From positions 96,001-160,000 of the forward strand of contig MHLM01000001.1 in the NCBI GenBank assembly GCA_001821395.1: a DNA stretch of 64,000 nt, in the 5' to 3' direction. Source of the DNA: Candidatus Lloydbacteria bacterium RIFCSPHIGHO2_02_FULL_50_18 (GTDB lineage Bacteria; Patescibacteriota; Minisyncoccia; Phycocordibacterales; UBA6899). The stretch's first letter is position 1. Every line of letters starts with the position of its first letter. The position numbers were made by a program, and so were the translations under genes. Positions 56,381 through 62,258 of the stretch are shown piece by piece. The notes under the pieces are model-generated. The model had not been told where the DNA came from. It made no database searches and worked only from the letters and a program-made list of their open reading frames with translations.

Positions 56381-57313
56381 CTATTCCTCGCCCATATATT
56401 CGGGCGGGAGAACAAAGACGTGATAATGCGAACGCTCAATGATGAACAGAATTTTATGCTTTTGTTGATCGGCGATAAGCCGGGCCTCAAGCCATGCGCG
56501 TTTCTGTTGACCAATATCCTTCAGACCGAGATCAAGCGAGGACCCACTTGTATGGGTGGAGCACAGAAATGCATAGCGACAGTCTGCGGGCGATAGCCCT
56601 CGCCTCACCTCTTTTGCCTGATCCTCAAAGGAGCGAATCATCGAAGTAACGCGAAGCGGAACGAAATGCTCACCGGCCTGCTCTTCCAGCGCAAAATGCT
56701 GATGCATATCATGAGCAAGTCCCGCGATATAATCGCGCACCCATGGACGAGTGAACCTCCTGTCGGGAGGGATCTCTTTTGACACCACTTCAACGTAAGG
56801 AGACGATATCTCCACAAGCTGACCTCCCGCTTCACGTCGGATATCCGCGAGATCGCGATATCCTCGAAGCCGAAATGTGCGCGCGAGACAAACTTCATGC
56901 CCATGATGCGCCGTGGATCCGCGCAGTGCGGACCAAAAGGCCCTGAGTCCGTTTTCCTCGCGTGCGGTCTGCTCTCGAAACACGAAATCCACTACAGCTC
57001 CAGTGCGATTCGTCTCAGTCACATGGCGGATGCATTCCGAAAATGCATCACGTATCGCCTCTTGCTTCGAGGAAAGCAATAGCTTCGCACCAAGCGGCAC
57101 TCGAGATGGATCGGCAACCGGTGGCAGCTTATTCTGTCTCACTTTGTGCTTTCCGGACCGTTGGGGCTTCTTTACCTTCTTGCACAGCTTTTGTTTATGA
57201 TTCTTCCGGCACTCCGCGCGAACGGACGTGTACTCCGTAGCCGGTGCGGCAAATGTGCTTCCAAAAAGGAGCACCATGAACAAAGCGGCTATCGCTCGTG
57301 CAATATGCTTCAT
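56381..57313 (-). CDS. Secreted LAS/M15-like peptidase (putative D-Ala-D-Ala carboxypeptidase-like)
   Basis: Signal peptide. STHTSGSSLD resembles SxHxxGxAxD and ERSHYH resembles the ExxH zinc motif. Confidence 0.4.
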   Translation of the reverse strand: MKHIARAIAALFMVLLFGSTFAAPATEYTSVRAECRKNHKQKLCKKVKKPQRSGKHKVRQNKLPPVADPSRVPLGAKLLLSSKQEAIRDAFSECIRHVTETNRTGAVVDFVFREQTAREENGLRAFWSALRGSTAHHGHEVCLARTFRLRGYRDLADIRREAGGQLVEISSPYVEVVSKEIPPDRRFTRPWVRDYIAGLAHDMHQHFALEEQAGEHFVPLRVTSMIRSFEDQAKEVRRGLSPADCRYAFLCSTHTSGSSLDLGLKDIGQQKRAWLEARLIADQQKHKILFIIERSHYHVFVLPPEYMGEE

Positions 57314-57398: not shown

Positions 57399-57554
57399 GA
57401 ATCGATCGCAGTACCGTTCGTTGCGGTCACAGATAATTTCCTCGCCGTCGCACGGAAATTTCCGCGACCCCGACTCGCAACCTCGCTTGCTAGCTCGGTA
57501 TCAGCTCCGTCTCCCGCAAAGCGAAAAACTGCATTCGCAGTTATTTCGTCTTTG

Positions 57555-57625
57555 CGGGCCCACGAGGAGTCGAACCTCGGACTCTTCTTTTGGAGAGAAG
57601 AATTTTACCGCTAAACTATAGGCCC
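57555..57625 (-). tRNA. tRNA-Trp (anticodon CCA)
   Basis: Acceptor GGGCCUA/UGGGCCC, anticodon loop CU-CCA-AA, and T-arm CGAGG-UUCGACU-CCUCG. Confidence 0.8.
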
Positions 57626-57693: not shown

Positions 57694-57849
57694 TTACTTC
57701 TTTGCTTCTTTGAACGTGACGCGCTTGCGGAGTTTTGCGCTGTATTTCTTGAGTTCGATCTTGCGCGTGACGAGCTTCTTATTCTTGCTGGTCCAGTAGA
57801 CCTCGCCTGTTTCCTTGTGTTTAAGCTGTATGAGATTATCTTGTGACAT
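57694..57849 (-). CDS. rpmG: 50S ribosomal protein L33 (Cys-less form)
   Basis: 51 aa: [51 protein letters not shown]. It was missed by the ORF track because it is under 60 aa. rpmG-tRNA-Trp synteny is common. Confidence 0.75.
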
Positions 57850-59261: not shown

Positions 59262-59348
59262 GCGTAGGTGGCGGAGCGGTCAATCGCAATAGACTGTAAA
59301 TCTATCGTCCTATGGGCTACGCAGGTTCGAATCCTGCCCTACGCACCA
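59262..59348 (+). tRNA. tRNA-Tyr (anticodon GUA), CCA encoded
   Basis: Acceptor GCGUAGG/CCUACGC, anticodon loop CU-GUA-AA, a long variable arm, and T-arm GCAGG-UUCGAAU-CCUGC, with CCA. Confidence 0.8.
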
Positions 59349-59560: not shown

Positions 59561-59663
59561 TTGAGCGATGGCTTTGCATCGTGAAAAAATGGGCGACATT
59601 GTTTACTTGCGAACAAACCGACCCTATGGTCGGTTTTACGTATGGTGTCCAGATATATGCCCT

Positions 59664-61778
59664 CTAAATAGCACCACTCTTACATTGCTTACATAAGTCA
59701 CGTACATTCTCGGGAACATAATCACACGACGGTGCGAGTTTGAAATTCTCGCAGACATTTGCGGGCATTCCGCCACCCGACGCGCCAGCAGGAGGCATCA
59801 TACCGGTCGGAATTCCTGCGGGAAGCTCTCCGCTCTTTGGAACTCCCTCGGGACGATAACCTGCTTCGGGGATGCCCTCCTTAGGAATACCCGCTGGCAT
59901 TCCGGCAGGTCTAAAACTCTGCATGCACTCAGCGATAAACGGCTGTACGTCTTCCGGTCCTCGTATTGTAGAAACATCACCGATCTTCGACTTGATACAG
60001 TCACGCATTTCCGCTGGCGCCTGCTCGAGCATCTTATCCATTATTGCAGTCGCATTAGCCGCACATGATTGAAATGCATTCCCCATGTCGGGAGAAAGCT
60101 CGATGCCGTCTCCATTCATGATCTTTTCTACGACATCTTTTCCAAGTTTCTCTTCGATACATGCGCGCATTTCCGGCGGCATCTTCTCAAGACCTTCGCG
60201 CGCCTGTTGCATTCCGCTCTCACGCATGGACTCAAAACACTTTCTCACGATATCTCCGCTTTGCGCATCCATTTCCCCACCCGAAAGCATCTTATCGAGC
60301 CCGCTCGACCCAAGCCCTTTTTCGATACAGGCTTTTGCCTCGGGTGTTGCGATATCCATCGCTGCACTTATCTTTTCTTTTATCTTAGGCATCATATCTG
60401 CCATGCAACCCTTGATCAACTGACCCATATTTTGTGTGGGCATGAACGTACCTTCTGATATCTTTGCCAGCGCTTCTTCTCCTAATTTTTCCTTTAGGCA
60501 TACACGCGCTTCTTCAGGAAGCTGCGGCAAACCGGCACGCAATTGACCCATTCCATCTTTGATCTCTTTCAATTGCTCGGCTGGAATGAGGCCATACTTT
60601 TCGGCAAACTTAAAACATTCTTCCTGGTGCGACGTATCATTACAATACGCCTCACAAGTTTCACGAGAACGGCACCCACCGGGACCCTCTCCGCCGGTCT
60701 TCCTCGCCATCTCGGCATCTTCCTTTGAAATGAGCCCTGCTTTCTCGGCGAAGTTCACACATTCATCGGCATGATCACTTTCGGAACAATATGCTTCACA
60801 AAGCGCTTTTGTTGTGCACTTTCCGGGAGTTTCACCCGACTTCATAAATGGGAGTACTCTGCGCGACTCTGCGACATCTTTTGGATCAATGAACCCTGCT
60901 TTCTCGGCAAACGTGAGACATTCATCAGCATGGGTCGTATCAGCGCAATATGATTCACATGATTTTTTGTCTGTGCAGCCACCCGGAAGCGTCGCGCCTT
61001 CTGCAAGTACTCTGGATATCCGTTTCGCGTCCTGCAATACATCTTTCGGTATCAGGTTGTGTCGTTCTGCAAATAAGAGGCATTCATCCAAATGCGCGAC
61101 TCCATTGCAGTACGCCTCGCATGTTTTTTGGTCCTTACATGCACCGGGACCGTCTCCTCGGAGAACATCGGCAAACTCCCTCGCGCGAGCAGCCTCTTCC
61201 TTTGAGATCATGCCATTTTCTTCCGCATAATCCGTACACGCTACGATGTGCGCCTTGTCATCACAGTACGTCTTGCAGGACGACTGGTCCTTACAATTTC
61301 CGAGCTTAGTGATGGGAAATTTATTCTTCTCAGTTTCCGATCGCTGCAGATGCCCGACCGCACCAAACACACTATCGGTCACGACACCGTCATTGGTGAA
61401 CGTATACACGCGCCCCCACAAATTCAACCTCATATCATCGGGACGCTGCGTCTGATACGAAGTGGAATATATCCCTTTTGTACCCTCGTTGAAACCACTG
61501 ACGCTCCAGTTCATGTCGGCGGCAGTGTATCGAATCGTATATATTTTTCCTGCCATGAGCGTTCCCATGGGGTCGCTCGAACCCTTCCAGCCGGAATCAT
61601 CAAAATTGGCTGTATCAAAATTCACGTAAAATGTTTTTCCCGACTTGATGTACGACTGCCATGGCCCGAGTTCGGGTGCCGCAAACGCAACGATCACCGA
61701 GCTCATGAATATTCCCGCACAAACGATCAGCACTGCAATGTGTCCTGCGAGCACATTCTTCATGTGAAAATTTTTCAT
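59664..61778 (-). CDS. Secreted Cys/His/Met-rich tandem-repeat protein (704 aa)
   Basis: Signal peptide MKNFHMKNVLAGHIAVLIVCAGIF. It has at least six ~45-aa modules G-x-C-x6-C-x3-C-x5-H-x3-C-x2-FAEK-x-G-(L/I)-I, followed by four P-E-x3-C-I-x2-K-L-G modules and a Met/Pro/Gly-rich tail. Confidence 0.7.
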   Translation of the reverse strand: MKNFHMKNVLAGHIAVLIVCAGIFMSSVIVAFAAPELGPWQSYIKSGKTFYVNFDTANFDDSGWKGSSDPMGTLMAGKIYTIRYTAADMNWSVSGFNEGTKGIYSTSYQTQRPDDMRLNLWGRVYTFTNDGVVTDSVFGAVGHLQRSETEKNKFPITKLGNCKDQSSCKTYCDDKAHIVACTDYAEENGMISKEEAARAREFADVLRGDGPGACKDQKTCEAYCNGVAHLDECLLFAERHNLIPKDVLQDAKRISRVLAEGATLPGGCTDKKSCESYCADTTHADECLTFAEKAGFIDPKDVAESRRVLPFMKSGETPGKCTTKALCEAYCSESDHADECVNFAEKAGLISKEDAEMARKTGGEGPGGCRSRETCEAYCNDTSHQEECFKFAEKYGLIPAEQLKEIKDGMGQLRAGLPQLPEEARVCLKEKLGEEALAKISEGTFMPTQNMGQLIKGCMADMMPKIKEKISAAMDIATPEAKACIEKGLGSSGLDKMLSGGEMDAQSGDIVRKCFESMRESGMQQAREGLEKMPPEMRACIEEKLGKDVVEKIMNGDGIELSPDMGNAFQSCAANATAIMDKMLEQAPAEMRDCIKSKIGDVSTIRGPEDVQPFIAECMQSFRPAGMPAGIPKEGIPEAGYRPEGVPKSGELPAGIPTGMMPPAGASGGGMPANVCENFKLAPSCDYVPENVRDLCKQCKSGAI

Positions 61779-61782
61779 ATCG

Positions 61783-62070
61783 CTAGAAAGGATTCTGATA
61801 AGTGTCGGTATACGGATTGACCGTTTTTTCGAACGGATTCGTATCAGGCATCTTTTCGACTGGATTGGATGCACCAGTTTTTTGATAAATATCTCCACCA
61901 AAAGATTCGGCGGGTACCGCCTCTGCCGGTGTGGCATTTGTATCACTTCCTGATAATGTGTTGTCGGTCCCCTTTTGAGAAGTACCGAAATAAAACCAAA
62001 ACATAAACCCTAAAATGACGGCGAACACGAGCGCGGCAAGCGCAAGTAGTACATTTTTTTTCATGATCAA
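61783..62070 (-). CDS. Small secreted hypothetical protein (95 aa)
   Basis: Signal peptide. Its stop lies 4 nt upstream of the start of the large gene. Confidence 0.5.
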   Translation of the reverse strand: MIMKKNVLLALAALVFAVILGFMFWFYFGTSQKGTDNTLSGSDTNATPAEAVPAESFGGDIYQKTGASNPVEKMPDTNPFEKTVNPYTDTYQNPF

Positions 62071-62228
62071 ATTTTATCATATCAAAAAGTATAGTGCGAA
62101 CAGCCGGACTCCACTATGTCGTACCTGATCGACAACATATCGTTACAGAGACACATCTTTACCAGGATCTCGATCATCAATTCAAAACGATGAGCTGTGA
62201 CCATAATGACCCAGCGACTCTGCTCAAA

Positions 62229-62253
62229 GAAAAACCGGCGTTCGCCGGTTTTT
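62229..62253. terminator. Bidirectional terminator after clpB
   Basis: aaaaa-ccggcgttcgccgg-ttttt. Confidence 0.75.
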
Positions 62254-62258
62254 CTTTA

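Follow-up and report, generated by a model that had tools for sequence, protein, structure and literature searches.

A two-gene unit in the Lloydbacteria window

The window analyzed here is a stretch of 64,000 nucleotides (nt) from Candidatus Lloydbacteria bacterium RIFCSPHIGHO2_02_FULL_50_18 (GenBank assembly GCA_001821395.1, contig MHLM01000001.1, positions 96,001 to 160,000 of the forward strand). Toward its end lie two minus-strand genes separated by 4 nt, a small one upstream and a large one downstream, and this gene pair, encoding a modular, cysteine-rich protein of 704 amino acids (aa) and a partner of 93 aa, is the subject of the present study (Table 1). The NCBI record of the large protein starts at Met6, giving a product of 699 aa, and from residue 6 onward the sequence is 100% identical to P0001, a "hypothetical protein" of Candidatus Lloydbacteria bacterium RIFCSPHIGHO2_01_FULL. 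A longer, GTG-initiated form of the large open reading frame (ORF) extends to 61946 and overlaps the small gene, and it is unlikely that the real start lies there. The record of a near-identical strain variant, P0002, uses an upstream start of this kind (MPHRQRR...; window 59664-61946, minus strand, in the frame of the large gene), which also overlaps the small gene and was probably mis-called. For the small gene, TTG at 62070 is a possible alternative start.

Table 1. Coordinates of the gene pair, of the parts of its two products and of nearby features in the window.
Feature	Position	Strand	Details
Large gene	59664..61778	-	ATG 61778, 704 codons, stop 59664-59666
Sec-type signal peptide	61680..61778	-	Residues 1-33, predicted cleavage VAFA/AP
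Variable N-terminal beta domain	61323..61679	-	Residues 34-152
Five Cys4 modules	60543..61319	-	Residues 154-412
Four Cys2 helical modules, Met-rich region	59895..60521	-	Residues 420-628; 8.5% Met
Pro/Gly/Met-rich low-complexity linker	59760..59894	-	Residues 629-673
C-terminal four-Cys motif	59667..59759	-	Residues 674-704; motif proper 676-699
Small partner gene	61783..62064	-	93 aa, ATG 62064, stop 61783-61785
Transmembrane helix of small protein (predicted)	61978..62052	-	Residues ~5-29, Kyte-Doolittle maximum 2.75
Conserved C-terminal tail of small protein	61786..61848	-	Residues 73-93, P-D-T-NPF-x4-NPY-x3-Y-x-NPF-COOH
clpB terminator hairpin	62225..62258	-	Minimum free energy -23.1 kcal/mol, z = -6.9 vs shuffles, then U-run
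9-bp hairpin	59615..59636	-	28 nt past stop of large gene, centroid -14 kcal/mol
tRNA and L33 features, listed jointly	57554-57625 (-), 59262-59348 (+), 57694-57849 (-)

Architecture of the large protein

An original prediction, made by a model from the sequence alone, had described the large protein as secreted and 704 aa long; the length holds, and the N-terminus reads as a Sec signal peptide. The hydrophobic maximum of its signal peptide lies at residues 14-32 (Kyte-Doolittle, direct reading), and the N-termini of homologues are equivalent, ending in VxA or AxA. Direct reading of the N-terminus showed no twin-arginine motif, and the protein contains no lipobox ([LVI][ASTVI][GAS]C), the sole cysteine of the signal peptide, C20 in the context LIVC, having Val at position -1 and not being conserved in homologues. 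There is no LPXTG sortase signal, the C-terminus reading ...CKQCKSGAI, and no hydrophobic segment past residue 34 (maximum Kyte-Doolittle value 0.66).

Behind the N-terminal beta domain the protein is modular. The first array consists of five modules, each with four cysteines and here termed Cys4, of the consensus GPGGC-x5-C-x2-YC-x4-(H/N)-x2-EC-x2-FAEK-x-G(L/F)I-x2-E (Cys pattern C-x5-C-x3-C-x8-C), with the first cysteine (C1) at residues 162, 214, 268, 321, and 369 and a period of 48-54 aa, where the prediction had counted at least six repeats of ~45 aa. The second array comprises the four repeats that it had defined as P-E-x3-C-(I/L)-x2-K-L-G, each of which carries two cysteines (C427/458, 484/514, 540/572, and 594/618; pattern P-E-x3-C-(I/L)-x2-K-(L/I)-G ... 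C), and which we refer to as Cys2 modules. The Pro/Gly/Met-rich segment that it had placed behind them is also present and differs in length and sequence between homologues. The C-terminal four-Cys motif had been overlooked: it reads C-x2-F-x3-PSC-x-YVP-x5-6-C-x2-CK, with x6 in the window protein, is found by regular expression in 55 of 78 aligned homologues, most of the closest ones included, and its C, P, C, P, C, and C columns are invariant in 37 sequences.

Judged by pairwise alignment of modules against shuffled sequences, the repeats at the protein level are clearly far from chance (z = 14-26 for Cys4 and 6-10 for Cys2). A common origin of the two module types was rejected (hhalign probability 0.2). 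The DNA-level tandem repeats that had been described at 60540-61300 are present in faint form, with 45-66% identity between modules and, in a repeat search of the DNA, three copies of 72 nt (64-76% identity) spaced 144 and 159 nt, and Tandem Repeats Finder reported no repeat in the large gene; at the level of DNA, the module repeats are old and diverged. Variation in repeat number between strains, which the prediction had suggested looking for, does occur: apart from seven substitutions, P0002 differs from the large protein in lacking exactly residues 283-335, one whole Cys4 module, and this loss is a recombination between modules 3 and 4.

Predicted structure and search for known relatives

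The AlphaFold2 model of the large protein, built on 78 homologues, has a mean predicted local distance difference test (pLDDT) score of 84.3 and a predicted template modeling (pTM) score of 0.51, the latter fitting a set of defined modules whose mutual arrangement is not fixed. Residues ~50-145 are modeled as a beta domain of eight strands and residues 160-620 as all-helical, with about three helices per module and pLDDT mostly >90 (~80-96, mostly >90, in the Cys4 region), and the cysteines are positioned inside or at the ends of the predicted helices. Residues 634-670, within the linker, are predicted to be disordered (pLDDT <50), and the C-terminal four-Cys motif is modeled as two short helices (pLDDT 77-90).

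No match to the large protein was found in Pfam at E values up to 1, and none that was meaningful in NCBIfam. The best hits to sequences in the PDB were non-significant for the whole-family profile (E 0.09; NDUFB7, a CHCH protein) and reached E 0.065 for the Cys4 module profile, and Foldseek gave no match at E <= 0.001 to the PDB or to viral structures. The view that the repeat is not a named domain therefore stands: by these profile, sequence and fold searches, the Cys4 and Cys2 module types have no relative in Pfam, NCBIfam, or the PDB. CHCH or twin-Cx(n)C hairpins such as NDUFB7 and the small Tim proteins resemble the Cys4 module in having short helices with CX3C and two probable disulfides. 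However, C-x5-C-x3-C-x8-C contains a single CX3C and no twin CX3C or CX9C, Pfam gives no CHCH match, and the modules belong to an exported bacterial protein in which they stand in tandem.

A few homologues carry precomputed labels of the Pfam family PF25052 (AtDEF-like, plant defensin-like), which shares with the large protein a signal peptide followed by dense cysteines. On this basis the large protein might be a soluble secreted effector against hosts or competitors, either a defensin-like antimicrobial or a protective factor resembling a protease inhibitor, and the Kazal domains of three superfamily members would be in keeping with the latter. We consider such a role very improbable. When rescanned, the labeled homologues gave marginal scores of 20-29 bits against a cutoff of 25 bits, three of five homologues tested being just above it, and in three of the five the match overlaps the signal peptide and the first Cys cluster; the window protein itself has no AtDEF-like match even at E up to 1. 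The modeled modules are all-helical, unlike the cysteine-stabilized alpha-beta fold of defensins, and a protein of ~700 aa with a fixed nine-module architecture is unlike a small antimicrobial peptide, being ten times the length of defensin-like proteins (~50-80 aa). The AtDEF-like labels also conflict with the helical model, and we regard them as Cys-pattern noise.

Searches of the literature turned up no account of the family, and the most relevant expression paper makes no mention of it. Its sequences are public and are labeled hypothetical only, and the module types, the C-terminal motif, and the partner with its NPF tail (see below) are without a described counterpart.

Cysteines as probable structural disulfides

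The original prediction had offered two roles for the Cys/His/Met-rich composition, extracellular metal binding (Cu/Zn) or a redox-stable structure, and the available data lean to the structural one. The Cys columns of the Cys4 modules are invariant or >=90% conserved in the 78 homologues, and all four cysteines are kept in 1,397 of 1,400 modules examined, 132 apparent three-Cys cases being a spacing variant with C-x4-C. The mature protein has an even number of cysteines, 32. In comparison, Asn takes the place of the module His in 17-60 of the 78 homologues, depending on the module, and most Met residues of the mature protein, including nearly all of those in the Met-rich half, stand in columns where Met exchanges with Leu, Ile, Val, and Phe, that is, they seem to behave as buried hydrophobic positions. 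Copper-handling proteins of the CopC/PcoC/CusF or "Mets" type have conserved Met/His ligands, and these were not found in the homologues, nor did Pfam or NCBIfam return a match. Because of the Cys invariance, the even Cys count, the His/Asn and Met/Leu/Ile/Val exchanges and the Sec export, the sequence data favor structural disulfides over metal binding via His and Met.

A metal-binding role can be framed differently, with the four thiolates of each Cys4 module coordinating a metal or cluster (Zn(Cys)4, Cu(I)-thiolate, or Fe) and thioethers in the Met-rich half as further ligands, so that the protein would scavenge or detoxify metals in anoxic groundwater. The four invariant cysteines per module and the high Met content of the Cys2 region (Table 1) are compatible with this, as are metal-related neighbors at single related loci: a cupredoxin gene is found near the pair at one (L001:1063-1755 (-)), and at another a ferric-reductase-like gene (Ferric_reduct, FAD_binding_8, NAD_binding_1; L006:6707-8020 (+)) abuts the stop codon of the large gene. 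Neither gene is conserved across the other related loci, however. The exchange of His and Met just described also speaks against metal binding, as does Sec export in the absence of a twin-arginine motif, by which a pre-assembled cofactor would not be carried. No metal-binding family of Pfam or NCBIfam is matched, and the cysteines form a helix-borne C-x5-C-x3-C-x8-C pattern and not CxxC knuckles. We therefore regard an extracellular metal binder as improbable.

In support of structural disulfides, members of the candidate phyla radiation (CPR) are reported to be enriched in an MdbA-like extracytoplasmic thiol-disulfide oxidoreductase, often encoded next to VKOR (bioRxiv 10.1101/335083). A motif scan of the 64-kb window revealed no candidate gene for a thiol-disulfide oxidoreductase or VKOR, the window being too small an area to say much.

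The small partner protein and its conserved tail

At the six loci reached via homologues, the sole conserved neighbor of the large gene is a small gene (81-92 aa) located 2-53 nt upstream on the same strand, and a small gene of the same type lies directly upstream, again on the same strand, at 83 of the 85 usable related loci, the upstream sequence being masked or missing at the other two. The database relatives of the small protein number 80, range in length from 67 to 139 aa, and are unnamed or "hypothetical" save for one with a spurious FliL label. The ORF was correctly recognized in the original prediction, which took its product to be secreted; from its sequence, the small protein is better described as single-pass and membrane-anchored. 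The hydrophobic stretch spans 21-25 residues (median 21 in 55 homologues) without an obvious cleavage site, and AlphaFold2 predicts a helix at residues 3-28 with pLDDT 83-93.

The helix is followed by a variable acidic stretch and then by an invariant extreme C-terminus. In the window this tail is PDTNPFEKTVNPYTDTYQNPF, and the consensus among homologues is P-(D/E)-x-NP(F)-x4-6-NP(Y/F)-x3-Y-x-NPF with 0-3 residues trailing. Across 55 homologues N83, P84, Y89, N91, P92, and F93 are invariant, and P73, N76, and P77 are >=90% conserved. In the AlphaFold2 model the tail has no regular secondary structure (pLDDT 66-71), and to be conserved yet unstructured would be the profile of a short linear motif. 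Eukaryotic NPF motifs bind EH domains, and by analogy only, the tail is similar in presenting several Asn-Pro-aromatic copies in an unstructured segment that is conserved while the remainder varies. It differs in its bacterial origin and probable extracellular location, and neither an EH domain nor an EF-hand was matched.

We favor an N-in/C-out topology on sequence grounds because the flank N-terminal to the helix is the more positive one in 33 of 55 homologues (the C-terminal flank in 13, with nine tied) and the part behind the helix is net acidic (mean -1.8). In many homologues a Lys/Arg cluster lies directly behind the helix (on average 2.3 Lys/Arg in the first 15 residues of this part), so the tail could be cytoplasmic. 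In that N-out/C-in arrangement the small protein would be an export, oxidative-folding, or regulatory factor, or the two proteins might merely be co-expressed components of the envelope, and the tail would bind nothing on the large protein; also in line with this, the number of NP(F/Y) motifs is uncorrelated with the number of Cys4 modules (Spearman rho 0.13-0.19, p 0.10-0.27). The flank charges and net acidity given above favor an outside location, and an invariant end of a variable, unstructured tail that is strictly linked to a secreted partner is explained most simply as a docking peptide, and we consider the absence of tail binding unlikely. Docking of one motif per module is unsupported, the NP(F/Y) number bearing no relation to the module number. 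The small partner is kept where the large protein consists of Cys4 modules only (P0082/L004) and where it is without the C-terminal motif (P0106/L005), which leaves the Cys4 array as the candidate surface for any contact between the two proteins.

It is also conceivable that the small protein is a pro-peptide that gives off its C-terminal NPF peptide as a signal, with the helical array as the sensor. Such a pair would loosely resemble RRNPP quorum-sensing systems, where the gene for the peptide neighbors that for a receptor built of helical repeats. The receptors of the latter are cytoplasmic and TPR-like, usually with an HTH or phosphatase output, and these features were not found here. We regard a peptide signal and receptor as highly improbable.

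Distribution and variation of the family

A search with the whole protein returned >425 relatives, and all of the named ones are Patescibacteria (Lloyd-, Nomura-, Azam-, and Wildermuth-bacteria, Paceibacterota). In a scan of GTDB with one genome per species, 311 loci were found, and the best 80 are all labeled as CPR save for one contig binned as "Spirochaetia bacterium" (L043, contig QYPD01000037.1, about 9.5-9.6 kb), which carries a full CPR-type pair including the NPF-tail gene and is probably a mis-binned patescibacterial contig. When a profile of the five window modules was searched against 1.84 billion representative proteins, it matched 1,697 proteins (clusters) at E <= 0.001 and 901 at <= 1e-30; the best 150 matches are 386-1,555 aa long and contain 5-13 modules each, and the named matches are again Parcubacteria. 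The gene pair is thus apparently limited, or almost so, to Parcubacteria/Patescibacteria.

Within the subfamily the array is regular and the N-terminal domain is variable. Exactly five Cys4 modules are present in 71 of 78 members, the span from first to last C1 being 207 residues in most. P0041 and P0056 lack the N-terminal domain, and in P0024 and P0029 its place is taken by another kind of beta domain. Of the 52 superfamily members of greatest length, seven contain a ConA-like Laminin_G_3 lectin domain, located at one end or the other, and Kazal protease-inhibitor domains occur in three; relatives with a Cys4 array fused to one of these two domain types include P0205, P0294, P0327, P0272, and P0250. 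Laminin_G_3 and Kazal are typical extracellular domains, which supports an extracellular setting. The C-terminal four-Cys motif was seen only in family members within ~700 kb of related loci, and a shared sorting tag was set aside because the motif is confined in this way; a 45-aa profile of the motif retrieved one 60-aa fragment among 62 candidates from the database, an uninformative yield. On the Paceibacterota contig of L005 an 830-aa product with Pfam Vault_3 and MVP_shoulder hits (L005:8306-10798 (-)) is encoded two genes downstream of the large gene; by its appearance, the gene is related to those for major vault proteins, here in a member of the CPR.

Genomic surroundings of the pair

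The terminator hairpin of clpB marks the 5' boundary of the two-gene unit. The 9-bp hairpin beyond the large gene is possibly, though weakly, a terminator, the 62-nt downstream stretch as a whole being unexceptional (z = -1.4) and its U-run not clear. A match to a sigma-70-like promoter (TTCGCA and TAAAAT 18 nt apart, the latter TG-extended; window 62071-62100, minus strand) ends 7 nt before the ATG of the small gene, and the count of promoter-like matches in the region is not above that of shuffled sequence. No obvious Shine-Dalgarno sequence precedes either gene of the pair.

The genes of the neighborhood are of the housekeeping type: clpB, alr (alanine racemase), rpmG (L33), tRNA-Trp, tRNA-Tyr, miaA, a peroxiredoxin gene, parB, relA/spoT, topA, and dprA. 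The tRNA-Trp(CCA) and L33 genes are located between a DUF5715-like gene and the alanine racemase gene, and tRNA-Tyr(GTA) between the latter and the large gene. The protein of 310 aa encoded at 56381-57313 (minus strand), ~2.4 kb downstream of the pair, has a signal-like N-terminus and a sub-threshold DUF5715 match only (E 8.9e-4, 19.4 bits; cutoff 26.8), and is a further uncharacterized exported protein. Searches with PADLOC and PHROGs models gave best E values of 0.017 and 0.06, respectively, neither of them significant, and with this and the housekeeping neighbors in view a defense-system or phage origin of the pair was rejected.

Proposed mechanism

Directly supported are the two genes with their architecture, conservation and synteny, the helical fold as a prediction, and the lack of any known relative. 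With these as a base we put forward a hypothetical mechanism in which the pair is an envelope unit characteristic of Parcubacteria, a disulfide-stapled stalk with variable heads for which the small partner acts as the tether. We infer in addition the disulfides, the N-in/C-out topology, an interaction of tail and array, and a scaffold or display role, and the proposal as a whole is tentative, one that we hold to be quite possible without calling it probable. After export by Sec, the large protein would fold on the outer side of the membrane, its five Cys4 and four Cys2 modules forming an all-helical array in which the 32 cysteines would most likely form 16 structural disulfides by means of the MdbA/VKOR-type machinery reported for CPR. 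The resulting array would be a rigid stalk or scaffold, resistant to redox and protease, and would bear a variable head, which is a small beta domain here and another beta domain, a LamG lectin, Kazal domains, or none in relatives. Behind the array would follow the flexible, disordered Pro/Gly-rich spacer and then a small four-Cys knot. The small single-pass protein, presumed to be co-transcribed, would dock its NPF/NPY/NPF tail on the Cys4 array and so keep the array at the cell surface.

The general kind of such a protein, exported, disulfide-rich, and modular on the surface of a monoderm bacterium, is familiar. Gram-positive surface stalks are built of tandem helical bundles, for example the three-helix modules of the protein A, GA, and FIVAR type or Ebh of Staphylococcus aureus. 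The large protein is like these in having exported, tandem helical modules of ~50 residues with a variable binding domain at one end and a Pro/Gly spacer at the other, also in a monoderm. In contrast to them, it has no sequence or fold match and its modules carry four invariant cysteines; moreover, it lacks an anchor of the LPXTG, SLH, LysM, or choline-binding type, the proposed anchor being a separate small membrane protein. The MdbA/VKOR-dependent proteins of Actinobacteria, such as the FimA pilin (bioRxiv 10.1101/335083), are likewise exported proteins of monoderms, and the large protein would resemble them in relying for its folding and stability on post-translocational disulfides. These pilins, however, are beta-rich and sortase-polymerized, whereas the large protein is predicted to be all-helical, would have far more disulfides (up to 16), and is without a sortase signal.

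Several points count against the proposed stalk. The Lys/Arg cluster behind the helix of the small protein and the missing correlation between motif and module numbers have been described above. The literature searched holds no expression, localization, or binding data for any family member, and none of the modules examined was a natural Cys co-loss variant from which disulfide pairs could be deduced. Anoxic groundwater is the habitat of many such organisms, and under these conditions the cysteines could conceivably be free thiols or form thiolate-metal sites.

A more specific form of the tethered-stalk proposal, which we think rather unlikely as it stands, is that the pair is a class-wide anchoring system of Parcubacteria in which a three-motif Asn-Pro-aromatic peptide is docked non-covalently in a new disulfide-stapled helical module. 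On episymbiotic cells, the stalk would then carry heads for the binding of hosts or ligands that can be exchanged for one another (beta-barrel, LamG lectin, Kazal), and, if true, this would mean a new module for peptide recognition as well as a new principle of anchoring in monoderms.

Implications

A large part of bacterial diversity belongs to the Parcubacteria and their relatives, which have tiny genomes, are mostly uncultured, and probably live attached to other cells. The pair described here is widespread, with at least 311 species-level genomes and ~1,700 protein clusters containing the module, and is strictly co-inherited. The Cys4 module and the NPF-tail protein merit definition as families whether the large protein is a scaffold or a metal binder. 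In the latter case, the pair would be relevant to the ability of such bacteria to withstand anoxic groundwater rich in metals. If the pair is instead an envelope scaffold or display stalk, it would represent a lineage-defining surface structure and may provide a handle for antibodies, for labeling in cryo-electron tomography, and for studies of host range.

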